Virus record (IMG/VR): IMGVR_UViG_3300010266_000005 | Location: 1-33,838 of that record | Source of the DNA: a virus | DNA length: 33,838 nucleotides | Reading direction: 5' to 3' (one strand) | In this document: positions 1-33,838 of the stretch, one piece after another | Position numbering within the stretch: the first letter of the stretch is position 1 | How the letters are laid out: each line of letters opens with the position of its first letter | Position numbers and translations under genes: made by a program | The notes under the pieces: generated by a model | Databases searched by the model: none | What the model was told of the DNA's origin: nothing | What the model saw: only the letters and a program-made list of their open reading frames with translations

Positions 1-123
1 ACCGGCCACGACCACATGGGGAAGACGATCAATCCCGCCGGGATCGAGCTTTTCCCCGGCGCGACTGCCGGACATGGCGGCTACATCGACTTCCACTACA
101 ATAACAACGCCGACGACTATACC
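1..123. repeat. Terminal direct repeat. Bases 1-123 are identical to 33716-33838 (assembly overlap of a circular genome, unit length 33,715 bp).
   Basis: Read directly: accggccacgaccacatgggg...cgacgactatacc is present at both ends of the window. Confidence 0.95.
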
Positions 124-2864: not shown

Positions 2865-3401
2865 ATGAACGCACAGGAGCTGATTTTGCGGCACAGGATC
2901 TCCCTGAAACTCGACGAACACGGCCAGCCCACAGGAAATCTGGTTGTGTACCGCGCCGACAAAGCGGCTCTTGCCGCTATCAAAGCCGCAAAGCCGGAGA
3001 TCGTGCCCACGCTGCTGGAGCAGCGAGAAACCGCCCTCCGCGCCGAACAGGAGCGGCAGAAGAAAATCGCCGCCATTCCCGGACTGCGGGAGATTGAAGC
3101 CGCCCGCGCCGATCTGGTAAACTGGAAACTGGAATTTGACGCCAGCTTTGACGGCGAGAACGGCGGCGGCGTGGGTGTCCGTCCCAAGCCTAAGTATGAC
3201 ATGGATGCCATGTACGCCCAGTACCCCCGCGCCAAGGCGTATCTGGACGCTGCAGATTTTGCGGCGTCCGAAAACGACGCAAAGTCCGCAGCCGGCATGA
3301 TGGCGCTGGAGGTCATCATCAACGGCGACAACCACGAGCAGGCCATCGCCGCCATGAACAGTGCGTGGGCGGCACACTGCGGACGGAATATTTGGGACTA
3401 A
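2865..3401 (+). CDS. Hypothetical protein (178 aa), accessory cassette.
   Basis: AGGAGG RBS before ATG 2865 (the ATG at 2835 lacks an RBS). Protein-like composition. No family recognised. Confidence 0.6.
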   Translation: MNAQELILRHRISLKLDEHGQPTGNLVVYRADKAALAAIKAAKPEIVPTLLEQRETALRAEQERQKKIAAIPGLREIEAARADLVNWKLEFDASFDGENGGGVGVRPKPKYDMDAMYAQYPRAKAYLDAADFAASENDAKSAAGMMALEVIINGDNHEQAIAAMNSAWAAHCGRNIWD

Positions 3402-3413
3402 GGGGGCTATGTC

Positions 3414-3743
3414 ATGGCAAACATGGAGATCAACACCCACGGCAGAAAAATCAACATGGCGGATCTTGCAGAAGCGTCCGAATATACCAGGGGCCTCGGC
3501 TCCCGCACGGGGGAGTACATGGAGATTTTTTACGACAAGTCCACCGGCGAGGTATGGGGAAAGTATCACTGGGACCGCGAGGAATGGACGGTCTACCACG
3601 ATGATGATGTTATCAAGGTCGGCCTCGCAATCCGTTTCAAATCCCCGCAGCGTATCGCGGACATGATTGCCCGAACCTTGACGGAAGAAGAAGGCTGGGA
3701 GCGCGAGAACGCCACATATCTGGCGGGCGGCGCGCAGTCATGA
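3414..3743 (+). CDS. Hypothetical protein (109 aa), accessory cassette.
   Basis: AAGGGGG RBS 7 nt upstream of the ATG. No family recognised. Confidence 0.6.
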   Translation: MANMEINTHGRKINMADLAEASEYTRGLGSRTGEYMEIFYDKSTGEVWGKYHWDREEWTVYHDDDVIKVGLAIRFKSPQRIADMIARTLTEEEGWERENATYLAGGAQS

Positions 3744-3749
3744 CGGTGC

Positions 3750-3778
3750 TTGACATTTCCTACGCAGCGTGGTAAACT
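3750..3778 (+). promoter_or_regulatory. Promoter P2 (near-consensus) driving the repeat-like RNA.
   Basis: TTGACA (3750-3755), 17-nt spacer, TGg-TAAACT (3770-3778). The spacer holds ..CCTACGCAGCGTGG, related to the P1 operator. Confidence 0.6.
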
Positions 3779-3811
3779 ATTTTTGTCGGATGCAAGAGGC
3801 GCTTGCATCTG

Positions 3812-3844
3812 GTGCGGCGCAATCCCGCCGCCGTGGATTGAAAT
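3812..3844 (+). CRISPR. Solitary type I-C-like CRISPR repeat unit GTGCGGCGCAATCCCGCCGCCGTGGATTGAAAT. Single copy, not an array.
   Basis: A 6-bp GC stem with a 6-nt loop is followed directly by GTGGATTGAAAT, the conserved 3' end of I-C repeats as I remember them (GTCGCGCCCCGCACGGGCGCGTGGATTGAAAC; GTCGCACTCTACATGAGTGCGTGGATTGAAAT). Confidence 0.55.
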
Positions 3845-3874
3845 AGTGAGAAGGACAAACACTTCAAGCGCAGG

Positions 3875-3908
3875 AAAAGCACCGGGCTTCCGGTGCTTTT
3901 CCTTTTTT
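3875..3908 (+). terminator. Intrinsic terminator.
   Basis: aaaagcaccgg-gctt-ccggtgctttt (11-bp stem) followed by ccTTTTTT. Confidence 0.85.
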
Positions 3909-3926
3909 GCAAAGAAAGGATAAGAT

Positions 3927-4265
3927 ATGACTGACAAACTGTTTTACACCATCTTCAGCGCGGCGCTGGATGCCGCCGACCGCGATAACTTTATCTCCGA
4001 CTGGGCGCTTTCCTCTGTCTGGGATGACGCCGCAAACATCCCAGCGGAACGCATCGCTGTACTTGGCGGCATATGGGATGCCGCCCACCTGACGATCCGC
4101 GACATCCGCCAGCATACCGGCCTATCCCAAGCGGCCTTTGCCACGCGCTACTGCATCCCCACCCGCACGCTGGAGGACTGGGAGCGCGGCGCTCGGAGCT
4201 GCCCCGACTATCTCCGTCTCCTGCTGGCACAGGCAACCGGAGCATATCAGCGGCCGTGGGGATAG
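3927..4265 (+). CDS. HTH DNA-binding protein (XRE/MqsA-like C-terminal HTH). Candidate regulator of the cassette (aca-like).
   Basis: IRQHTGLSQAAFATRYCIPTRTLEDWERGARSCPDYLRLLL is the typical G-LSQ..FA....IP.RTL..WE.G.R.P..Y...LL motif. Confidence 0.7.
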   Translation: MTDKLFYTIFSAALDAADRDNFISDWALSSVWDDAANIPAERIAVLGGIWDAAHLTIRDIRQHTGLSQAAFATRYCIPTRTLEDWERGARSCPDYLRLLLAQATGAYQRPWG

Positions 4266-4307
4266 CCCGTTGTCATTTCGTTGTCAAAAGTTGTTTTTAT
4301 TAAGCGC

Positions 4308-4338
4308 AAAGCCGTCCGCAAGGCTGGACGGCTTTTGT
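4308..4338 (+). terminator. Terminator of the accessory cassette.
   Basis: agccgtcc-gcaaggct-ggacggct followed by TTTTGTG. Confidence 0.6.
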
Positions 4339-4383
4339 GCTGGCTCGGACGCGCGGCGAGCCTAAAATCCTTGTAAATAAAGA

Positions 4384-4417
4384 GAAACCCGCCTGATCGT
4401 TGCAATCAGGCGGTTTC
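4384..4417. terminator. Bidirectional hairpin. On the minus strand it lies just downstream of the tRNA 3' fragment.
   Basis: gaaacccgcctgat-cgttgca-atcaggcggtttc forms a 13-bp stem with one bulge. T-rich on both sides. Confidence 0.6.
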
Positions 4418-4423
4418 TGGTTT

Positions 4424-4452
4424 TGGAGCAGGGTACGGGAGTCGAACCCGTT
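4424..4452 (-). other. attP core: 3' fragment of a tRNA gene (T-arm, acceptor 3' strand and CCA).
   Basis: Minus strand reads ACGGG-TTCGACT-CCCGT-ACCCTGC-T-CCA. No matching 5' acceptor strand or D/anticodon arms lie upstream, so this is a fragment. It sits directly 3' of the integrase gene. Confidence 0.75.
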
Positions 4453-4490
4453 GAAAAAACTGGTATACGCTGCTTAAATACTCGCTTCTT

Positions 4491-5621
4491 TCAAACTTCC
4501 GTTGCCATTTTGTTGTCAAAGTAGGCATCAATAGACTTGTCGATTTCTGCCATTCTGTCATCCATCGTGTAGGCGTAGACCTGCTTGTACACCCAGTCGT
4601 CGGACCAGCCGTTTCGCTCCTGCGCGTATTTTGATTCCACGCCCAGGCGGACCATGATGGCGGCGTTGGCGTGGCGCAGGTCGTGGAAGCGGCAGCGGGG
4701 AATGCCGGCGGCAGCGAGGCCGCGAATAAAGCGATTGTAGAGCGTCTGGCCGGAGACTGGAACGATGTAGCCCTCACTGCGTCCGGTGGCATCTATCAGA
4801 GCCTGAATGTGGGCGGGGACAGATATCCGGCGATCGCCGGAAAAGGTCTTCGGCGGCTTTACCTCGTCGCCATGTTCGCCGGAGACAATGGCGCGGCAGA
4901 TATGCAGCCGGCCTCCGGAGATATCCTCGAACCTGGCGCCGCGGATCTCCGACATGCGCATCCCCATCCACAGCGCCATGAGCACGGGCAGCTCCATGTC
5001 CGTGCCGGAGAATGCCGCGATGATCTTGCCAATCTCGGCGTCCTCAATCCTGCGCAGCTCCACTTTCCGCTTCTGCGGAAGAATGATAGAGATCTTTGAA
5101 TCTGGCGCAAACTGCTTGAGGACAGAGACAAGAAGTCCTTCAACGTTTCGGATATACTTGGGGCTCTTCCCGTTTTTCACCATCTTTCCGATCTCCCGCT
5201 GGATCTGCTCGGAGGTGATAGAGGAAGCCGGCAGTTTCATCAGGCTTGGGAAGGATGTTTTTGCGAGGCGCTTGTACTCTGCGGCGGTGGAGGGGGAGAT
5301 CACGCCGTCCCGGGATTCGATGTACTTTCGGTAAGCCTCCCTCAAGGTCATGGTCGAGGCGGCCTTTTCGGGCGCCTTCAGACCGTGCTTGATGGCCATG
5401 GCCTCGGCAATGGCTTCCTCCTTGGTCTCGCGCGTGATGGACACGTCCTGCCCGTTGACGCGGACACGGCAGGCCCACGAGCCGCTGGGAAGCTTCCGGG
5501 CGGTGGGCGTGTGGGCGGTGTTCTTGCTGCGCTGCTCCCGGACCTGCCGGGCGCCGCACCATTTGCAGTAGACGGAGTCGGCGTCTATCTCGCGGCCGCA
5601 GCCCTTATTCTTGCACTGCAT
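4491..5621 (-). CDS. int: Tyrosine integrase with an N-terminal zinc-ribbon.
   Basis: MQCKNKGCGREIDADSVYCKWCG (CxxC..CxxC). Catalytic region MRMSEIRGARFEDI, RFHDLRHANA, and ..YAYT.. (R..HxxR..Y). Confidence 0.9.
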   Translation of the reverse strand: MQCKNKGCGREIDADSVYCKWCGARQVREQRSKNTAHTPTARKLPSGSWACRVRVNGQDVSITRETKEEAIAEAMAIKHGLKAPEKAASTMTLREAYRKYIESRDGVISPSTAAEYKRLAKTSFPSLMKLPASSITSEQIQREIGKMVKNGKSPKYIRNVEGLLVSVLKQFAPDSKISIILPQKRKVELRRIEDAEIGKIIAAFSGTDMELPVLMALWMGMRMSEIRGARFEDISGGRLHICRAIVSGEHGDEVKPPKTFSGDRRISVPAHIQALIDATGRSEGYIVPVSGQTLYNRFIRGLAAAGIPRCRFHDLRHANAAIMVRLGVESKYAQERNGWSDDWVYKQVYAYTMDDRMAEIDKSIDAYFDNKMATEV

Positions 5622-5795
5622 GGCATGACCTCCCTCCTTTTGAGAAAGCGGTGCCCGAATCGGACACCGCCTCTATCTGCTCCTCTTTCCGCGGCAAATC
5701 TGCCGCTTACATATATTTTTGCAAAGAATTTACGTTTTACTGGATATATTCTGTCGAAGTGGTACAATAAAGGTACCATTGAGGAGGGACGCGAC

Positions 5796-5906: not shown

Positions 5907-5909
5907 GAG

Positions 5910-5932
5910 ACGGTGCCCGATTCGGGCACCGT
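5910..5932. terminator. Hairpin acggtgccc-gattc-gggcaccgt plus T-run. It is a member of the GGTGYCCGANTCGGRCACC palindrome family.
   Basis: 9-bp perfect stem followed by TTTTATTTTT on the plus strand. Confidence 0.7.
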
Positions 5933-9907: not shown

Positions 9908-11238
9908 CAACAGACAGCCCGATCCAGTCCCAGCGGCTGGCGACGGCGCAGGCCGCCGTGCTGGGCGCGATGCTGATCGACGCGGACTGCATTGCTGATG
10001 TGCTGGCGGATACGTCGGAGGCCATGTTCGTGTCGTCGGCCTACCGCACGGTGTACGGCTGCATCCGGCAGCTGTTTCAGGCGGCGCAGCCGGTCGACCC
10101 CGTGACGGTGGGCGCGGCACTGAAGGAGCGCGCCGGGCAGGACTACGGAGAGCTGTTGGTGCAGCTGATGGACGTGACGCCCACCAGCGCCAACGTGGGC
10201 TCCTACGTGGAGATCCTAAAGCGGGAGAGCATCGTGTGGCGGCTGCGGAGCATCGGCGCGGCGCTGGCGGAGACGGAAGATCTCCCGGCGGCGGAAAAGC
10301 TGATGGAGAAGGCCAACGCCGCCATGAGCCTGAAGTCCGGCGTGGAGGTCTGGGACATGACCCAGATGTGGGAGAACTTCTCCGTACGCCATGAGGAGAC
10401 GGAGAAGCCGGAGTACATCCGCTGGGGGTATGACTTTATCGACGAGCGGGTATACACAACCCGGGGCGACTACTGCGTCATCGGCGGATATCCCAGCGCC
10501 GGAAAGACGTGTCTGGCGCTGGGCATGGCCATGAAGATGGCGGAGCGGTACCGGGTGGGCTTTTTCTCCTTCGAGACGGACAAGGCCAAGCTGGCCGACC
10601 GCATCATGTCCGCCAAGGCCATGATCGACCTGAGCGACATCAAGCAAAACAAGCTGGGCGAAAAGGAGTGGGAGGAGCTGGCCTACGCGGCGTCCAGTCT
10701 GAGCAGGACGGGCCTGCAGATCATGCAGTGCAGCGGCTTTACCGTGGCGGACATCCAGTCCGTGGCGCTGTCCCGGCACTATGACGTGGTGTTCATCGAC
10801 TACCTGCAGCTCATCGAGGCGGACGGACGGAGGGGCTGGAGCCGTCCGGAGGAGGTCAGTTCCATCAGCCGCGGCCTGCAGCGGATGAGCCACGAGCACG
10901 GCATCACGGCGGTGGTGCTGTCCCAGCTGACGCCGGACGCCGGGTGGAAGAAGGCCGAGGCTCCCACCATGTACGACCTGCGCGAGAGTCGACAGATTAC
11001 CATGGACGCGGACGCCATCTTCCTGCTGTATCTGGAGGATCCGGAGGACCGCTCCGGGGCGCGCGTCCTGAAATGCGACAAAAACAAGGACGGACAGGCG
11101 GGCTGGTACAAGGTGATGCAGTTTCAGGGCCGCATCCAGAGCTTCCGTCCCATGCCGAAGCCGGTGGAGAAGGCGGCGCCGCTTCCGGCGCAGGTCAGCT
11201 TTCACGAAATCAAAGACGACGGCGACGTGCCGTTCTGA
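9904..11238 (+). CDS. dnaB: DnaB-like replicative DNA helicase.
   Basis: N-terminal AQAAVLGAMLID.. DnaB-N signature. Walker A GGYPSAGKT. ..VFIDYLQLI.., ..VVLSQL.., LRESRQI. Confidence 0.85.
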   Translation: MTTDSPIQSQRLATAQAAVLGAMLIDADCIADVLADTSEAMFVSSAYRTVYGCIRQLFQAAQPVDPVTVGAALKERAGQDYGELLVQLMDVTPTSANVGSYVEILKRESIVWRLRSIGAALAETEDLPAAEKLMEKANAAMSLKSGVEVWDMTQMWENFSVRHEETEKPEYIRWGYDFIDERVYTTRGDYCVIGGYPSAGKTCLALGMAMKMAERYRVGFFSFETDKAKLADRIMSAKAMIDLSDIKQNKLGEKEWEELAYAASSLSRTGLQIMQCSGFTVADIQSVALSRHYDVVFIDYLQLIEADGRRGWSRPEEVSSISRGLQRMSHEHGITAVVLSQLTPDAGWKKAEAPTMYDLRESRQITMDADAIFLLYLEDPEDRSGARVLKCDKNKDGQAGWYKVMQFQGRIQSFRPMPKPVEKAAPLPAQVSFHEIKDDGDVPF

Positions 11239-11249
11239 GAGGAGGGCCT

Positions 11250-11441
11250 ATGCAGGTCGGCGACAAGGTTACATACGTTCCCTTCGTGTTGCGCTACGCA
11301 AAGGACACGGAGCTGCGGGCGCCCAGCGTGACGGTGCCTGTGGTCTGGGTGCATCCGGAGGGCCGCTTTGCGGTGGTGGAGCGCAGCATAGGGCGGTACA
11401 AGTATCGGGAGTGCGTCCCGTGCATAAAAACGAAAAAGTGA
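11250..11441 (+). CDS. Small hypothetical protein (63 aa).
   Basis: GAGGAGGG RBS before ATG 11250. Internal start of track ORF 10944..11441. Confidence 0.5.
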   Translation: MQVGDKVTYVPFVLRYAKDTELRAPSVTVPVVWVHPEGRFAVVERSIGRYKYRECVPCIKTKK

Positions 11442-11451
11442 GGTACGAGCA

Positions 11452-12240
11452 ATGAAAACCATAGCGATCATGAACTTGAAGGGCGGCGTGGGGAAAACCG
11501 TCACGGCCATCAATCTGGCGGACGCCCTGCGGCGCGCCGGCAGACGGGTGGTGCTGGTGGACTGCGACGGGCAGATGAGCCTGACGCGGTTCTACTTCCC
11601 GGATCTCGACCCGGACAACGCCGCCACGGTGGCGGATGTGCTGGAGGGCGAGGCGGAGCCCGTGTGGAGCGACAGCACCATCCCCGTGGACGCCGGCGGC
11701 CTTGTGCAGCTGCTGCCGGCATCCAGCGCCCTGTACGGGCTGGATGTGCGGGCGCTGAAAAGCAGCATCCACAGCATCAGCTCTCTGCGGGACTTCCGTG
11801 ACGCGGCGGCGGTCGACGGCATGGACTACATGATCTTTGACTGCCCTCCCGGCTTCACTGCGGCAAGCTGTGCGGCGCTGATGGCGGCAAACGAGGTGGT
11901 CGTCCCCATGGTGGTGGATGGCTTCTCCGTCTGGGGCGTCAGCGACATGGCGGCGCAGATCAACAGCATGAGGGCTGCCAACCCCGCTATCAGGGTGGCC
12001 GGCGTTTTGATCTGTCAGTGGCACAACAGCGAGGTGGTGCGACAGGGCGAGGCGCTGCTGCGAGGCTTGAGCCTGCCGGTGTTCACGTCGGTGATCCGTC
12101 GGACGGAGAAGGTGCCGGAGAGCACGTTCTCCCGGCAGCCGGTCATGGACTATAGCCCCCGCAGCGCGGCGGCGGCCGACTACCGCGCATGGGTTTGGGA
12201 GTATCTGATGGAGGGAGGTGCAGACCGTGGCGAAGTTTGA
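11452..12240 (+). CDS. parA: ParA/Soj-family partition ATPase.
   Basis: Deviant Walker A MNLKGGVGKTVTAINLA, plus ..VLVDCDGQ.. and ..IFDCPPG.. Confidence 0.85.
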   Translation: MKTIAIMNLKGGVGKTVTAINLADALRRAGRRVVLVDCDGQMSLTRFYFPDLDPDNAATVADVLEGEAEPVWSDSTIPVDAGGLVQLLPASSALYGLDVRALKSSIHSISSLRDFRDAAAVDGMDYMIFDCPPGFTAASCAALMAANEVVVPMVVDGFSVWGVSDMAAQINSMRAANPAIRVAGVLICQWHNSEVVRQGEALLRGLSLPVFTSVIRRTEKVPESTFSRQPVMDYSPRSAAAADYRAWVWEYLMEGGADRGEV

Positions 12241-13786
12241 CATGGGTGAGTTTGCCAAGACGCTGGCGCAGCCGGTGTCCGAGTCGGGCACCGGGCGGGA
12301 GCAGATCGAGTACATAGACATGGATCTTCTGGACAGTGACCCCGGCAACTTCTACGAGCTCCGCGATTTGGATAGTCTGGCGGACAACATCGCTACCATC
12401 GGCCTCCAGCAGCCCATCCGGGTGCGGGACGGCGAGAACGGTCACGCGGTGATCGTCTCCGGCCACCGCCGCGTGGCGGCTATCCGCAAGCTGGTGGAGG
12501 ACGGGCGGACGGATCTCCGCGAGGTACCCTGTATTCGTGAAAAGGGTGATGCGTCTCCGGCGCTGCGGGAGCTGCGCCTGATCTACGCCAACAGCAGTAC
12601 CCGCGCGCTGAGTTCCCCGGAGATCTCCCAGCAGGTGGAGAAGGTGCGGGAGCTGCTGTACCAGCTGAAGGAGGAAGGCTACGAGTTCCCCGGCCGCATG
12701 CGGGATCATGTGGCCGAGGCCTGCAAAATCAGCAAAAGCAAGCTGGCGCGGCTGGATGTTATCCGGAAGGGCTTGGCTCCTGGCATCCGGAAATTCTACT
12801 GGGACGGCCCCCAGAGTAAGAGTTTGAGCGAGGATGCGGCCTACACCCTCGCCCGTCTTCCGGTGGACGTGCAGCGTCAGGTGGTTGATGCATACCGCGG
12901 TCAGGCCCAGGGCGACAGCGGCCTGAAATATCTCTACGCAAGCACGGTGGAGGCTGTGACTAAGTCCGTGAGCAAGGTTAACGGTAGCCCGGCGAAGTGC
13001 CCCGATGGCGCGGCATGCTCGCACAAGGATGCGCAGGTCTCCCATACCATCAAGGTGAAGGTCAAGAGCCGCTGGTCGGACTGCGGGTGTGAGTATGGCT
13101 GCTGCGCGAAGTGCAGCTCGCTGCAAAGCTGTAAAGATGTGTGTCCAAATTTGATTGGCAAGCAGAAGGAGCTGAAGGCCGCCGCCAAGGCGGAGCGGCA
13201 GCGGGAGGCGGCCGAAAAAGAAGCGCGGCAGCGGCCGGACGCAGAGCGCGTCGGCGCCATCTGGCAGAGGTTCGGCGCCCTGCGCGAACGGGCAGGCCTG
13301 ACGCCGAAGCAGTATTTTGAGAAAATCGGCTGCCCATATAGCGGGCTTATTGAGAGGGCGGAATCTCTCGAAGCCGGCCGCGAGAAAATCGAGCCAAACG
13401 AAGGACTTCCGTTCGGCTACAATGTTGGCCTGTCCCATATCAATCAATGGGTGGCTGCGGCGGATACGCTGGGCTGCAGCGTGGATTACCTGATGCTGCG
13501 CACCGGCGAGCCGCGTATGGCGGATGAAGTGGCCGCCGTCCCGCGGGTCTGCGCCAGTCAGATGGCGCTTGCCGCGTGGATGCCCGGCGGCACGACGCCG
13601 GCAGAGCCGTGTGACGTGGTGGCGGAGTTCGACCTGAGCAGCGACGGCGAGCTGACATCTCGCTCGCTCTGCCGGTGGGACGGTGAGGCGTTCCGGTTCG
13701 GGAAGAGCAGAGACAAGATCGAGGTGCGTGTCGTCCGGTGGCTGGCGCTGCCGGAGGTGGAAAAGGAGGATGGTAACGATGATTGA
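12227..13786 (+). CDS. parB: Large ParB-like protein: N-terminal ParB/Srx domain, Cys-rich cluster, coiled-coil, XRE-type HTH, and a C-terminal domain.
   Basis: NFYELRDLDSLADNIATIGLQQPIRVR..VIVSGHRRVAAIRKL (ParB box). Cys cluster CPDGAACSH...CGCEYGCCAKCSSLQSCKDVCPN. ..LGCSVDYLMLRTGEP is an HTH ending. Start is uncertain (GTG 12218, GTG 12227 or ATG 12242). Confidence 0.75.
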   Translation: MAKFDMGEFAKTLAQPVSESGTGREQIEYIDMDLLDSDPGNFYELRDLDSLADNIATIGLQQPIRVRDGENGHAVIVSGHRRVAAIRKLVEDGRTDLREVPCIREKGDASPALRELRLIYANSSTRALSSPEISQQVEKVRELLYQLKEEGYEFPGRMRDHVAEACKISKSKLARLDVIRKGLAPGIRKFYWDGPQSKSLSEDAAYTLARLPVDVQRQVVDAYRGQAQGDSGLKYLYASTVEAVTKSVSKVNGSPAKCPDGAACSHKDAQVSHTIKVKVKSRWSDCGCEYGCCAKCSSLQSCKDVCPNLIGKQKELKAAAKAERQREAAEKEARQRPDAERVGAIWQRFGALRERAGLTPKQYFEKIGCPYSGLIERAESLEAGREKIEPNEGLPFGYNVGLSHINQWVAAADTLGCSVDYLMLRTGEPRMADEVAAVPRVCASQMALAAWMPGGTTPAEPCDVVAEFDLSSDGELTSRSLCRWDGEAFRFGKSRDKIEVRVVRWLALPEVEKEDGNDD

Positions 13787-16511: not shown

Positions 16512-16849
16512 CCCCCCCTCGAAAAAACGCCCCTCGCGTCTTTTTTGCTACTCGTGGGGGTCCAGGACATTCCAGCGATTTCCGCGTCTGCGCGTCGCCG
16601 CGCTGCGCGTGGGCGCGAGGATCGCCGGGCAATTCCAGAATGAACTGCGGTTTTGCGGGGCGGGCAGCCCCGGAAGTACTCTTCTCCTTTTTCCTCGGTT
16701 CGGGCGGCTCGTCCGCCCGTCCCGCAAAGCCGCAGAAGAATGCCTCGGGCTGGTCATCCGAAGGCCTGCGCTGGATGCGCGGGGTATTGACGTAGGCTGT
16801 TTGGCCTGAGGCGGACGCGGTGTCCGAATCGGGCACGGGAGGTGACTTA

Positions 16850-18079
16850 ATGCGAATCGAGAACAGACCGCTGGCGGAGCTGACGCCGTATCGAGCCAAC
16901 GCCAAAAAGCACGACGCCGCGCAGGTGGCCAACGTGGCGGAGAGCATCCGGCAGTACGGCTTTGTGCAGCCGGTCGTGGTAGACCGGGACGGCGTGATCG
17001 TCATTGGTCACTGCCGCGCCCTGGCGGCGGAGAAGCTGGGCATGGTTGAGGTGCCCTGCGTCTGCGTGGATGATTTGACGCCGGAGCAGGTGAACGCTCT
17101 GCGTCTTGTGGACAACAAGAGCAACGAGAGTCCTTGGGATCTCGACCTTCTGGGCGCCGAGCTGCCGGAGCTGGATCTGTCAGCGTTCGATTTTGAGTGG
17201 GGCGAGTTGCCCGGCGCGGGATTTGACATCGGCTCCCCCGCTGCCTGTGCTGCCGCTGTTTCTGAAAATCCTTTAAGCGACGAAGACCCCGACTACCAGT
17301 CCTTTGTGGAGAAATTCATGCCAAAGAAAACGACAGACGACTGCTACACGCCGGAGAATGTCTACGCGGTAGTTAAGGATTGGGCCGTTGATCGTTATGG
17401 CTTATCTGGCGCGGAGGTGCTGCGCCCGTTCTATCCGGGTGGCGATTATAGGGCGGTGACCTATGACGAGAATGCCGTTGTTATAGATAACCCGCCCTTC
17501 TCAATCATCTCCGAGATCTGCAACTGGTACATGCAGAATGGCGTCCGATTCTTTTTGTTTGCCCCGGCTCTTACGCTTCTGGGCATTGGTCGAGGACGCC
17601 TGAACTATATTGCCTGCGGAGCCCCTGTCGTATTCGAGAACGGCGCAAATATAAGTATCTCCTTCGTGACGAACATGGGAGACTTCGCGGTGGAATCCGC
17701 TCCTGATCTCCGAGGACTCCTTAAGGCTGCAAACGACGAAAACTTGAGCGCAGCCCGAAAGGATCTCCCTGTGTACTCCTATCCGGCGAACGTTTTGACC
17801 GGCACAATGGTGCAATACTTTTCCTCGCATGGTGTGGATTTCAGAGTTCCCCGCGCCCACCTGTCATTTATTCGGTCTTTGGATTCTCAGCGCGAGAAAG
17901 GCAAGGGGCTCTTTGGTAGTGGCTTCTTGATTTCGGAGAAAGCAGCGGCAGAGAAAGCAGCGGCAGAGAAAGCAGCGGCAGAGAAAGCAGCGGCAGAGAA
18001 AGCAGCGGCAGAGAAAGCGGCGGCAGAAAAATGGCAGCTCTCTGATCGGGAAAAAGCCATCGTTGCGTCTCTTGGCTGA
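16850..18079 (+). CDS. ParB-like nuclease domain fused to an N6-adenine-type DNA methyltransferase domain, with a C-terminal EKAAA repeat tail.
   Basis: N-terminus LTPYRANAKKHD..QVANVAESIRQYGFVQPVVVD..VIVIGHCRALAA. C-terminal domain DCYTPENVY and VIDNPPFS (motif IV NPPF). Start is at ATG 16850 after a GGGAGGTG RBS. Confidence 0.75.
   Translation: MRIENRPLAELTPYRANAKKHDAAQVANVAESIRQYGFVQPVVVDRDGVIVIGHCRALAAEKLGMVEVPCVCVDDLTPEQVNALRLVDNKSNESPWDLDLLGAELPELDLSAFDFEWGELPGAGFDIGSPAACAAAVSENPLSDEDPDYQSFVEKFMPKKTTDDCYTPENVYAVVKDWAVDRYGLSGAEVLRPFYPGGDYRAVTYDENAVVIDNPPFSIISEICNWYMQNGVRFFLFAPALTLLGIGRGRLNYIACGAPVVFENGANISISFVTNMGDFAVESAPDLRGLLKAANDENLSAARKDLPVYSYPANVLTGTMVQYFSSHGVDFRVPRAHLSFIRSLDSQREKGKGLFGSGFLISEKAAAEKAAAEKAAAEKAAAEKAAAEKAAAEKWQLSDREKAIVASLG
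17936..18030 (+). repeat. 15-bp tandem repeat gagaaagcagcggca, about 6.3 copies (five perfect, the sixth with one A>G change), in-frame (EKAAA)n.
   Basis: Read directly from the sequence. Copies start at 17936, 17951, 17966, 17981, 17996 and 18011. Confidence 0.95.
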
Positions 18080-33640: not shown

Positions 33641-33838
33641 ATGGCTACAAACTATGTTGACAGCCTCAATGTTGGAAATGTTGACTACGCGCTAAAAGAT
33701 TCGGGGGCCGCGAGAACCGGCCACGACCACATGGGGAAGACGATCAATCCCGCCGGGATCGAGCTTTTCCCCGGCGCGACTGCCGGACATGGCGGCTACA
33801 TCGACTTCCACTACAATAACAACGCCGACGACTATACC
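33641..33838 (+). CDS. Tail fibre protein, 5' part (continues at 124..429 after the duplicated junction).
   Basis: ATG 33641 follows a GGAGG RBS. The ORF runs off the window end and is in frame with 1..429. Confidence 0.7.
   Translation, partial: MATNYVDSLNVGNVDYALKDSGAARTGHDHMGKTINPAGIELFPGATAGHGGYIDFHYNNNADDYT
33716..33838. repeat. Second copy of the 123-bp terminal repeat.
   Basis: Identical to 1-123. Confidence 0.95.

Follow-up and report, generated by a model that had tools for sequence, protein, structure and literature searches.

A conserved phage RNA gene that most likely imitates a single type I-C CRISPR repeat-plus-guide unit

Described crRNA-like RNAs of viruses and hosts, and how the locus compares

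RNA anti-CRISPRs (Racrs) are solitary repeat units, and a type I-C representative, RacrIC1, has been validated (Camara-Wilpert et al., Nature 2023, PMC10651486). A second class, the Cracr RNAs, is carried by viruses and plasmids and consists of a pseudo-repeat, a pseudo-spacer and either a terminator or a second pseudo-repeat; it is defined by a match of at least 9 PAM-proximal nucleotides to the host cas or creT promoter and by similarity to CreR/CreA (Liu et al., bioRxiv 10.1101/2024.10.29.618823). CreR and CreA themselves are crRNA-like regulators of the host (Shmakov et al., PMC10120712; Liu et al., bioRxiv 10.1101/2023.03.10.532045). Viral mini-arrays that act in inter-viral conflict carry at least two repeats identical to those of the host, and their spacers match related viruses (Medvedeva et al. 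2019, PMC6858448; PMC11656645). As for the type I-C proteins, published work shows that Cas5c reads the base of the stem together with U22-G23-G24 and the 3′ overhang and ignores the loop and the 5′ overhang, and that the handle, clamped by Cas5c and Cas7.7, nucleates a Cascade which has no subunit holding the 3′ stem-loop.

Here, we analysed a stretch of 33,838 nucleotides of viral DNA (IMG/VR record IMGVR_UViG_3300010266_000005; the window), in which an earlier note had proposed that a phage lacking cas genes encodes a solitary type I-C repeat-like RNA with its own promoter and terminator. The anatomy of the locus, the handle and its single copy support this proposal, and the locus is most likely a small conserved RNA gene that imitates one I-C repeat-plus-guide unit, to hijack or blunt host immunity. 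It is a new family within the recently described class of RNA anti-CRISPRs and viral crRNA-like RNAs rather than a system of a new kind; with Racrs and Cracr candidates for type I-C already in print, its novelty is lower than the earlier note implied.

The RNA shares with Racrs that it is a single repeat-like prophage unit with its own transcription and no cas genes, solitary and intergenic, away from repeats. Its GTGGATTGAAAT tail signals type I-C specificity, its place is an accessory region beside small uncharacterised genes and an HTH gene, and its expected effect would be competition for Cas5c and Cas7. With regard to the acr/aca neighbourhood of Racrs, an HTH gene is adjacent in both gene contexts described below, and p109, the small protein encoded upstream, resembles no known protein. 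However, Racr candidates were found through near-full-length repeat similarity, whereas the likeness here is limited to the handle and to having a hairpin, and the unit does not occur in the part of the SRUFinder candidate table that was compared. RacrIC1 lies 11 nt downstream of an AcrIC5 homologue and shares its transcript, whereas this RNA has its own promoter, and it additionally carries a covarying 5′ hairpin and a selected pseudo-spacer, neither of which a decoy needs.

The Cracr architecture is present in full, with one pseudo-repeat, one pseudo-spacer and a rho-independent terminator exactly as in CracrVA1. The RNA is also phage-borne, I-C candidates of the class have been reported, and the constraint on its pseudo-spacer is stronger at the PAM-proximal end. 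Yet the class is defined by the host promoter match, and in the window, 0.8 Mb of phage loci and 1 Mb of I-C array loci only chance-level TTC-plus-seed matches turned up; no host-side copy of the pseudo-repeat was found in a metagenome scan, in which all real matches lay in phage context; and the reported I-C examples are two-spacer arrays, in contrast to the single unit with a 5′ hairpin found here. CreR and CreA likewise combine a degenerate repeat with a short guide, and bring about Cascade binding without cleavage through partial complementarity, but they reside inside cas loci, whereas this RNA is always in phage DNA. With viral mini-arrays it has in common a cas-less virus and a repeat-plus-spacer unit relying on host Cas proteins; it differs from them in having one divergent repeat, not at least two host-identical ones, and no match to a virus in the collections searched. 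We also saw other promoter-driven I-C mini-arrays in IMG/VR phages (loci L145/L122/L164, L168 and L178). These have a consensus promoter, the same handle (one with the UGGGUUGAAAU variant) and pseudo-spacers of about 30 nt, and their last unit runs straight into a terminator hairpin, but their hairpins are canonical (GTCGC...GCG), they comprise 2-3 units, and their pseudo-spacers and phages are unrelated.

Anatomy, distribution and gene neighbourhood of the module

A near-consensus promoter, a 5′ hairpin, a hairpin with the handle, about 30 nt of single strand and a strong terminator all lie within positions 3750-3908 of the window, in crRNA sense orientation (Table 1). The earlier note had located the promoter, the repeat-like unit, the spacer-like segment and the terminator correctly; the hairpin that it placed at 3785 is also present, with a stem of 10 bp by folding and not the 8 bp it described. 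The promoter scores 10/12 with a TG extension, is the sole promoter-like site on the + strand in 3000-5000, and puts the predicted transcription start at about G3785. The 5′ element resembles the hairpin (5′) half of an I-C repeat minus the handle. It is followed by the 33-nt repeat-like unit (3812-3844), a GC stem with a 6-nt loop and then the exact type I-C handle, whose hairpin is the predicted recognition hairpin of Cas5c, with the cut predicted after G3833. The exact 12-mer is present in a single copy in the window (about 0.0014 expected by chance), and the statement that the window holds no second full repeat was borne out, as none was found even at up to 2 mismatches. The spacer-like segment 3845-3878 is mostly unpaired in the fold, and the 5′ arm of the terminator, GAAAGCACCG, is kept in all lineages. 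As a whole, the 124-nt transcript folds at -57 kcal/mol (z = -4.8 against shuffles), and 0 of 200 shuffles folded as well. Rfam returned nothing at the gathering threshold in the region, its low-score matches being driven by the terminator, and no cas genes occurred among the Pfam marks on 21 kb of the same contig. The remaining ORFs of the window, judged from their translations only, look like phage structural and replication genes.

Table 1. Features of the RNA module and its neighbours in the window. Identity is the mean pairwise identity among 29 unique cassettes.
Feature	Positions	Strand	Identity	Description
p109, small acidic protein	3414..3743	+		linked upstream gene; pI 4.9
Sigma-70-type promoter	3750..3778	+	0.91	TTGACA 3750-3755, 17-nt spacer, TG-n-TAAACT (3773-3778)
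5′ element	3785..3811	+	0.98 (hairpin)	GUC + 10-bp hairpin, loop AGGCG (fold)
Pseudo-repeat hairpin	3812..3833	+	0.95	G3812-C3832, U3813 bulged, 6-bp stem GCGGCG/CGCCGC, loop CAATCC, then G3833
Type I-C crRNA 5′ handle	3834..3844	+	0.97	11 nt, UGGAUUGAAAU; exact match
Pseudo-spacer (psiS)	3845..3872	+		~28 nt single-stranded; 34 nt (to 3878) if counted to the GC core of the terminator
Intrinsic terminator	3872..3908	+		14-bp stem (pairs within 3872-3903), GCTT loop, T6
112-aa protein with C-terminal HTH_3	3927..4265	+		HTH_3 E 3e-6; phrog_25567; Aca-like by position
Flanking CDSs			0.73 and 0.82	third codon positions of flanks 0.69-0.73

The same module was found once each in 64 fetched phage or metagenome loci, which hold 37 distinct RNA sequences, the window included. 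All 64 occurrences belong to phages or prophages, and none is part of an array or adjoins cas genes. A metagenome scan with a loose pattern gave 38 loci, 8 of them chance matches and the rest phage cassettes, again with no array or cas-linked copy. At the end of the prophage, in its lysis-integrase accessory region, the module lies beside an HTH gene, and it occurs in two unrelated neighbourhoods, p109-RNA-HTH and XRE-RNA, indicating that the unit from promoter to terminator moves as a self-contained module. By their pseudo-spacers, types A, B, B′, C, D and D′ were distinguished, and types B and D carry equivalent promoters. Type A, C and D loci nearly all have p109 immediately upstream of the RNA and the HTH_3 gene 3′ of it; in type A the terminator lies about 20 nt before this HTH gene, for which no separate promoter is evident and which is therefore probably reached by read-through of the terminator. 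In type B, a different HTH gene (XRE) lies immediately upstream, and no same-strand gene follows the RNA. Against the PDB, the HTH_3 protein gave weak HigA-like matches only. For p109, we found no match in Pfam, PHROG or PDB sequences and no similarity to known anti-CRISPRs; its 126 homologues are all close, and its confident AF2 model (pLDDT 86) has no fold neighbour in the PDB by Foldseek (best E 0.43). By its position, p109 is an anti-CRISPR candidate.

The analysis supports a temperate phage from uncultured human-gut Oscillospiraceae. A related prophage is inserted in the tmRNA gene, adjoining an smpB gene that encodes a protein with 99% identity to the SmpB protein of an Oscillospiraceae MAG, which backs the host guessed in the earlier note. 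The tmRNA-smpB attachment site is present, for example, on ERZ28642018 scaffold_167. In an I-C array of the same metagenome, one spacer (L200) is identical at 28 of 33 positions to a conserved site of the phage family, without a TTC PAM.

We then compared the pseudo-repeat with natural type I-C repeats. The same handle was present in 683 of 699 repeat-like units from 120 IMG/VR loci with I-C arrays. The 11-nt 3′ overhang of I-C repeats (UGGAUUGAAAU/C), with UGG after the cut site, was found in the pseudo-repeat, and so was a hairpin of about 7 bp abutting the cleavage site (the 6-bp stem plus G3812-C3832, ending one base before U3834). The features that Cas5c needs are kept, namely the stem base, UGG and the 3′ overhang, while the loop, the 5′ overhang and the stem sequence are unlike those of the natural repeats found. 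Similarity to the natural hairpin half (GUCGC...GCG) was low, the best of 174 halves reaching 13/21 with gaps and the median being 8; the 5′ GUC overhang is missing from the pseudo-repeat, and the 5′ overhang differs between lineages (UGGU vs CGGA). Where I-C repeats form arrays beside cas genes, all 64 loci hold one copy each. The earlier note had called for an alignment with CRISPR repeats of candidate hosts; in the collections searched here no counterpart emerged: the hairpin matches no repeat in the metagenome scan, among the 174 natural halves, or in GTDB representative genomes scanned for CGCCGCCGTGGATTGAAAT, the CGCCGCC stem variant only, where 10 chance matches in coding DNA and no array were obtained. 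The GTDB pattern was too narrow in that most family members have TGCCGCC, and YGCCGCCNTGGRTTGAAAT covers this common T variant. A host CreR-like element with the pseudo-repeat was likewise absent from the metagenome scan, in which an element with a different pseudo-repeat would be missed.

Conservation and covariation

The two hairpins and the handle are conserved well above the flanking genes (Table 1). Within the promoter, the -35 and key -10 bases are nearly invariant, while in the terminator the loop drifts freely (identity 0.58) and the arms hold 0.90-0.96. Compensatory changes were found at 11 pairs, compared with 3.9 in shuffles, and 97.5% of cells were paired, compared with 40-56% when the 3′ partners were slid by 1-3 columns. 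In the 5′ hairpin, both partners differ at 7 of the 10 pairs when lineages B and D are included, with 99.7% of cells paired, and the loop RGGCG and the leading GUCG are invariant. Five pairs of the pseudo-repeat stem are invariant; the sixth is G-U, G-C or A-U and is unpaired in 7/37 sequences. At one pair of the terminator, 5 sequences carry G-C in place of A-U, a compensatory change. In the handle, UGG and UUGAAAU are invariant in 37/37 distinct sequences, and the sole variant, A4 to G, is also present in degenerate natural I-C repeats. A large clade combines a T.T mismatch at the top stem pair with the A-to-G change in the handle, and four loci alter the base before the cut site, natural variants having A or U there; these changes could be decay. 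Taken together, the recurrence of the module, its conservation above the flanks and the compensatory base-pair changes indicate that it is not a chance feature.

Two other candidates were rejected. A coding reading of the mechanical ORFs at 3750-3923 (+) and 3593-3937 (-) is excluded by frame-breaking indels (1-nt and 4-nt) together with the stem covariation, and a small hairpin within the pseudo-spacer, GAAGG/CCTTC, showed no covariation and had one pair unpaired in 12/37 sequences.

The pseudo-spacer and the readings of the RNA

The RNA likely acts by way of I-C Cas proteins, whatever its exact mode. A reading absent from the earlier note fits best, that of a viral crRNA-like regulatory RNA: a Cracr-like anti-CRISPR RNA that would be cut by Cas5c and loaded into Cascade as a pseudo-guide, which we hold tentatively, at somewhat less than an even chance. 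A sequence-specific guiding role, as opposed to that of a mere decoy, is also a tentative claim, somewhat short of an even chance.

The main rival is a pure decoy of the classical Racr kind, which would titrate Cas5c and perhaps Cas7 through dead-end subcomplexes, with no sequence-specific role for the spacer arm. It agrees with a solitary repeat-like unit that has its own promoter and sits in a prophage without cas genes, with the experimental validation of RacrIC1, with the lack of a pseudo-spacer target in the collections searched, and with hairpins and a handle that are better conserved than the pseudo-spacer. Nevertheless, pseudo-spacer identity is 0.89 at positions 1-12 and 0.82 at positions 13-28, well above the approximately 0.70 at third codon positions of the flanks, and a 7-nt block, AGAAGGA (3849-3855), is invariant in the 31 type A sequences. 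Among the paired positions from 1 to 14, 8 are invariant, 4 show transitions only and none is a transversion site; the sole proximal transversion falls on position 12, one that Cascade flips out, and the most variable position of all, 24, is likewise flipped out. The contrast in transversions between the proximal and distal parts is not significant (Fisher p = 0.09), and positions 1, 3 and 4 vary, though they are expected to be most critical for the seed. The PAM-proximal pseudo-spacer reads AGYRAGAAGGA in type A and ATAATTTAGAAC / ATGTTAAAAAGC in type B. In lineage B the pseudo-spacer diverges far faster than its immediate flanks, also against a pure decoy: 10/30 positions differ in a 30-nt window spanning all 26 nt of it, compared with about 97% identity over the 900 nt upstream and only 5 differences in the 90 nt that follow. 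The conservation indicates purifying selection on the pseudo-spacer, and both it and the hot spot in lineage B imply that the sequence matters, which argues against a pure decoy. Moreover, Racr candidates of the SRUFinder type resemble a known repeat closely along their length, whereas this hairpin matches none. The decoy that the earlier note had offered as its first reading is thus possible as far as it goes but incomplete, as it has no need of a selected spacer-like segment, and we regard it as unlikely to be the whole explanation.

The second reading of the earlier note was a one-spacer mini-array, by which the phage would give host Cascade a guide of its own choosing against rival phages or plasmids with a TTC-flanked protospacer, for superinfection exclusion. 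The crRNA geometry (handle plus about 30-35 nt), the position in the lysogenic-conversion region and the several distinct pseudo-spacer types are all in keeping with it. The searches did not bear it out: no protospacer was found for three spacer types (A, B and C) in 50,697 INPHARED phage genomes by BLAST, nor in about 0.8 Mb of related phage loci, and in IMG/VR, where exact 18-21-nt cores were used and diverged protospacers could be missed, the matches were self loci or chance-level AT-rich matches with no PAM or extension. The check that the earlier note had asked for, a match of the spacer-like segment next to a PAM, therefore came out negative in INPHARED and IMG/VR. Further searches gave no target beyond chance level. 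A TTC/TTT-plus-seed site, as for self-regulation, was absent from the window and related loci beyond chance level, and in 1 Mb of I-C array loci TTC-plus-seed matches were at chance level only. A TTC plus 10-nt seed match recurred in four loci inside a phage gene, which we take to be Gp157-like, at a frequency expected by chance. In the reverse direction, 589 spacers from 120 IMG/VR I-C array loci gave no convincing match to the window when searched against the phage family. The pseudo-spacer variants are homologous and point-substituted, not exchanged as a whole unit, unlike freshly acquired spacers; there is a single repeat only; two cassettes with different pseudo-spacers share one host contig; and neither the host-identical repeats nor the spacers matching related viruses of published mini-arrays are seen. 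The notion that the terminator must replace the hairpin of a downstream repeat is also unnecessary, as I-C Cascade has no subunit for the 3′ stem-loop. A mini-array against competitors is therefore improbable.

A function apart from CRISPR, as a base-pairing or protein-binding phage sRNA or an attenuating leader of the HTH gene with the handle as a relic, would be in line with the Shine-Dalgarno-like purine-rich block AGAAGGA, with the promoterless HTH gene shortly after the type A terminator and with a host not tied to any I-C system, but it is just as improbable, as all 37 distinct sequences keep the handle and UGG while nearby positions without a function drift, the hairpin and the handle join just as they do in a Cas5c substrate, the type B RNA has no gene to lead into, no start codon follows the Shine-Dalgarno-like block and the indels exclude coding, and no Rfam family matches.

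On the pseudo-guide reading, the strong promoter of the module would drive a prophage transcript of about 120 nt, and, going by the published requirements of Cas5c, the host enzyme would recognise the pseudo-repeat hairpin, UGG and the 3′ overhang and cut after G3833. The 3′ product, consisting of the 11-nt handle, the pseudo-spacer of about 30 nt and the terminator hairpin, would be captured by the Cas5c-Cas7 clamp, and a Cascade-like complex would form; a second repeat would be superfluous, since I-C Cascade does without a protein-bound 3′ stem-loop. Cas5c, Cas7 and Cas8c would thereby be drawn away from genuine crRNAs. Given the selection on the pseudo-spacer, the complex would most likely also be steered to a site, which we speculate to be a partly complementary, PAM-flanked one, likeliest in the host, for example a cas promoter. 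There it would bind and repress without cleaving, as shown for Cracr RNAs, and the net effect would be that the prophage and its relatives are shielded from I-C immunity. In its fullest form, a one-repeat, terminator-capped pseudo-guide would reprogram the Oscillospiraceae I-C Cascade onto a conserved host site (the cas operon or another gene), with the 5′ hairpin as an accessory element (a second Cas5c-binding decoy or a stabiliser) and p109 as a co-operating anti-CRISPR with a novel fold; that all of this holds together is doubtful.

The family adds to RNA-based CRISPR countermeasures a well-populated and strongly selected group from phages of abundant, uncultured gut Oscillospiraceae. The mimic retains only what Cas5c reads, so that searches by repeat similarity such as SRUFinder are likely to miss it, which suggests that the class is under-counted. 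In addition, the selected pseudo-spacer hints that 'solitary repeats' may be guides and not sponges, the layout of one repeat plus a terminator suggests a compact expression format for type I-C guides, and p109 is brought forward as a candidate new anti-CRISPR. If the pseudo-guide reading holds in its fullest form, the RNA would be the first I-C single-repeat Cracr and a natural minimal scaffold for I-C guides.

The RNA gene and its family

All the elements that the earlier note had listed, namely a promoter, a 5′ hairpin, a repeat-like unit, a spacer-like segment and a terminator, were present in the sequence of 3300-4400 (table). Consensus scanning of 3000-5000 gave the promoter 10/12 with the TG, as the sole promoter-like site on the plus strand, and also picked up the terminator. 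Folding of 3785-3908 as RNA gave −57 kcal/mol (z = −4.8), with three predicted helices and with neither the handle nor the spacer-like segment base-paired. Base composition predicts about 0.0014 copies of the 12-mer GTGGATTGAAAT in the window, which has one; neither a second copy with up to two mismatches nor a direct repeat of the repeat-like unit was found there.

Features of the phage genome and of related or comparator loci, with mean pairwise identity over 29 unique type A/C cassettes
Feature	Position	Strand	Identity	Remarks
p109 gene	3414-3743	+	0.725 (third positions 0.69)	small acidic protein, pI 4.9; stop at 3743
Promoter			0.91	
-35 box TTGACA	3750-3755	+		
Promoter spacer	3756-3772	+		17 nt
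-10 box TAAACT	3773-3778	+		TG before it
5′ element, GTCG and hairpin	3785-3811	+	0.98	
Repeat-like unit (pseudo-repeat) GTGCGGCGCAATCCCGCCGCCGTGGATTGAAAT	3812-3844	+		
Pseudo-repeat hairpin			0.95	
Handle	3834-3844	+	0.97	
Spacer-like segment	3845 to ~3878	+		~30 nt, purine-rich single strand
Spacer-like positions 1-12			0.89	
Spacer-like positions 13-28			0.82	
Terminator	3872-3903	+		14-bp stem, then T6
Terminator arms			0.90-0.96	
Terminator loop			0.58	
HTH gene	3927-4265	+	0.82 (third positions 0.73)	112 aa
Tyrosine integrase	4491-5621	-		ORF translations / Pfam marks
Palindrome GGTGYCCGAWTCGGRCACC	5646-5669; 5908-5931; 12270-12293; 16815-16838			GC-rich, 20-24 nt, four copies
Rfam DUF3800-VIII RNA motif	16744-16810	+		40.7 bits, just above the gathering score of 40.2
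Tandem 15-nt unit GAGAAAGCAGCGGCA	17921-18040			six units, encoding EKAAA repeats
Cassettes on OIXQ01000053.1	L089 1-1434; L070 36129-42868			
Prophage integrated at tmRNA gene, beside smpB	L093 10502-12475; tmRNA 11005-11351			tag peptide DNTNTVAVAA
Promoter-driven I-C mini-arrays	L145 2516-2755; L168 2581-2947; L178 8629-8868	-		2-3 pseudo-repeats

Hairpin-plus-tail pattern scans returned 33 loci from IMG/VR and 38 from the metagenome collection, one more came from a scan that used the spacer-like segment as anchor, and seven distinct sequences (eight loci) without surrounding similarity were excluded as chance matches. The family, the window included, thus comprises 64 loci with 37 distinct RNA sequences, all in phage or prophage context and with exactly one RNA copy per locus (64/64). 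In types A, C and D, lineages told apart by the spacer-like segment, the order is p109, RNA and the 112-aa HTH gene, usually with an integrase near; type B belongs to an unrelated phage group, whose RNA lies between an XRE-type HTH gene on its upstream side and a convergent lysin gene downstream. What the two neighbourhoods have in common begins at the -35 box and ends with the terminator, so that the unit behaves as a self-contained mobile gene rather than as the leader of one ORF. The 73-kb metagenome contig OIXQ01000053.1 carries two p109-RNA-HTH cassettes, one of type A and one of type D, with different spacer-like segments, so related prophages with different RNA versions can share a host chromosome.

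Pair counts on the 37-sequence alignment showed 97.5% of cells paired, compared with 40-56% when the 3′ partners were slid by 1-3 columns, and double changes at 11 pairs versus 3.9 in shuffles. Seven of the 10 pairs of the 5′ hairpin are compensated across lineages (GATGCAAG/CTTGCATC, AGTATGAG/CTCATACT, GGTGCAGA/TCTGCATC). This stem covaries freely, but no lineage departs from the loop RGGCG, the leading GUCG or the GG linker (3811-3812), which suggests that the 5′ hairpin may bind a specific ligand rather than just protect the 5′ end. In the pseudo-repeat stem five pairs are invariant, and the sixth is G-U, G-C or A-U, or T.T in one large clade. Mechanical ORFs overlapping the region were rejected as coding because of frame-breaking indels and the stem covariation. 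Taken together, 3785-3908 is a real, structured and strongly selected RNA gene.

The upstream protein, p109, is restricted to this phage group, with 126 close homologues, and had no match in Pfam, PHROG or PDB sequences. Its confidently predicted structure (pLDDT 86) comprises a helix, three strands and a long C-terminal helix, with no fold neighbour in the PDB. By position only, p109 is a candidate new anti-CRISPR, with which this profile is compatible but for which it is not evidence. The 112-aa protein carries a C-terminal HTH_3 domain, and in type B a different HTH gene adjoins the RNA; an HTH regulator linked in both contexts gives the arrangement a likeness to acr-aca loci.

Probable mimicry of the type I-C Cas5c substrate

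Type I-C repeats form a 7-bp stem with a pentaloop and overhangs of 2 nt and 11 nt; U22-G23-G24, the stem base and the 3′ overhang are recognized, while the loop and the 5′ overhang are dispensable (Lemak et al. 2021, summarising Nam et al. 2012). According to cryo-EM work, Cascade is nucleated when Cas5c and Cas7.7 clamp the 5′ handle, and in the complex the I-C crRNA lacks a 3′ stem-loop partner (O'Brien et al. 2020). The tail of the repeat-like unit is the I-C handle in sense orientation, and every one of the 37 distinct RNA sequences keeps UGG and UUGAAAU. The phage RNA retains exactly the features required by the published biochemistry, whereas its dispensable parts resemble no natural repeat. 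The best-scoring hairpin half among 174 distinct repeat-like units, taken from 120 I-C array loci in IMG/VR, reached 13 of a possible 21 in gapped comparison (median 8). No array with this stem and tail was found in the GTDB representatives, scanned for the CGCCGCC variant, or in the metagenome collection. The handle variant UGGGUUGAAAU of one clade and an A or U before the cut site occur likewise in degenerate natural I-C repeats. We conclude, from the published requirements, that the unit is probably a functional mimic of the Cas5c substrate and not a copy of a particular repeat. The earlier interpretation was right in part: the proposal of an I-C crRNA mimic without cas genes stood. No Cas family appeared among the ORF translations read and the Pfam marks on the ENA contig.

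An IMG/VR scan for I-C arrays provided comparators from phages unrelated to the window (L145/L122/L164, L168 and L178), each with a consensus promoter, canonical I-C pseudo-repeats and ~30-nt pseudo-spacers. In L145/L122/L164 the last unit runs directly into a terminator, as in the phage RNA, and one unit has the UGGGUUGAAAU handle; in L168 transcription begins just ahead of a bare handle and L178 ends in a degenerate second repeat. The ending of L145/L122/L164, together with the phage RNA, makes one repeat followed by a terminator a recurrent natural I-C design.

Readings of the spacer-like segment

The RNA probably acts in one way or another through I-C Cas proteins. Our tentative preference is for a crRNA-like anti-CRISPR RNA in the manner of the viral crRNA-like regulatory RNAs (Cracrs), in which Cas5c would process the RNA and Cascade would load the product as a pseudo-guide. 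AGAAGGA (positions 5-11) does not vary across 31 type A sequences, in which the base-paired positions among 1-14 comprise eight invariant, four transition-only and no transversion sites. The sole proximal transversion lies at position 12, a base that Cascade flips out, and position 24, flipped out as well, is the most polymorphic, with three alleles. Four transversion sites fall in positions 15-28, but the proximal/distal contrast is no more than suggestive (Fisher p = 0.09). A caveat is that seed positions 1, 3 and 4 are variable, though every change there is a transition. In lineage B, L001 and L055 are ~97% identical over 900 nt upstream, match at 20 of 30 positions across the spacer-like segment, and at 28, 27 and 30 of 30 in the next three intervals, a sharp local divergence hot spot. 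Above-neutral conservation in one lineage and faster-than-flank turnover in another indicate that the spacer-like sequence matters. Such a pattern would be expected from a guide whose complementarity is partial and PAM-proximal, and it fits the published Cracr, with one pseudo-repeat, a pseudo-spacer with 10 nt matching a cas promoter, and a terminator (bioRxiv 10.1101/2024.10.29.618823). The window, the related loci and 1 Mb of I-C array loci yielded no target, the matches there occurring at chance frequency. A recurrent match inside a phage gene, which we take to be Gp157-like, was rejected as being of chance frequency.

The earlier note had also offered a decoy, that is, a solitary repeat unit acting as an RNA anti-CRISPR (Racr). 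The I-C mimicry without cas genes speaks for this, but a pure decoy is less likely and incomplete as an explanation, since it leaves unexplained the invariant AGAAGGA, the lack of transversions at paired positions and the lineage B hot spot. A mini-array directed against competing phages, its other reading, is very improbable. Searched by BLAST in 50,697 phage genomes, the three main spacer-like types hit nothing but the element itself; exact 18-21-nt cores in IMG/VR returned only family members and a handful of AT-rich coding matches, which lacked a PAM, did not extend and were about as frequent as chance predicts; and 0.8 Mb of related phage DNA gave no match. Moreover, the types can be aligned with one another and are separated by point changes and small indels, with no wholesale replacement, whereas published mini-arrays have repeats identical to the host's and spacers matching viruses (Medvedeva et al. 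2019, PMC6858448; reviewed in PMC11656645). An sRNA or leader unrelated to CRISPR is equally hard to credit, the unit shared by two neighbourhoods arguing against the leader of a particular ORF.

The phage, its host and the RNA class

Positions 1-123 and 33716-33838 are an identical 123-bp terminal overlap, indicating a complete, circularly permuted element of ~33.7 kb, which corresponds to ENA contig ERZ27241758 k141_121360. ORF translations and Pfam marks on this contig identified a CHAP / PG_binding_1 lysin and a holin, DnaB, ParA and ParB, and terminase, portal, protease, capsid, tape measure and tail genes; the window is a small temperate siphophage. The RNA gene sits in an accessory region with lysis genes on one side and the integrase on the other. 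Two GGTGYCCGAWTCGGRCACC palindromes overlap the starts of ParB-like genes (12218-13786 and 16820-18079), and these palindromes might be parS-like sites or regulatory hairpins of the phage ParA/ParB module. The last copy directly follows the DUF3800-VIII motif. The GAGAAAGCAGCGGCA units lie inside the 419-aa ParB-like / methylase-like ORF 16820-18079.

In L093, a related integrated copy, the RNA cassette is the final element ahead of the host tmRNA gene and smpB. The SmpB is 99% identical to a protein from an Oscillospiraceae MAG, which points to an uncultured gut Oscillospiraceae host, as had been guessed. An unrelated second phage region (P22-type portal) lies ~2.5 kb further along. An I-C array from the same gut metagenome (L200 1-400, repeat GTCGCCCCCCGCACAGGGGGGCGTGGATTGAAAT) has a spacer 28/33 identical to L046 7978-8010, a motif that recurs at 23-27/33 in 21 other loci of the phage family and, read on the opposite strand, looks like an RBS/start-codon region. 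A TTC PAM is absent from every site matching this spacer; the match may be a trace left by I-C immunity to relatives of the window phage.

Racrs (one validated for I-C) and Cracrs (with I-C candidates) are already published, and the RNA joins a known class. Distinctive here are the covarying 5′ hairpin, a hairpin unlike any catalogued repeat, and the conserved p109-RNA-HTH cassette.
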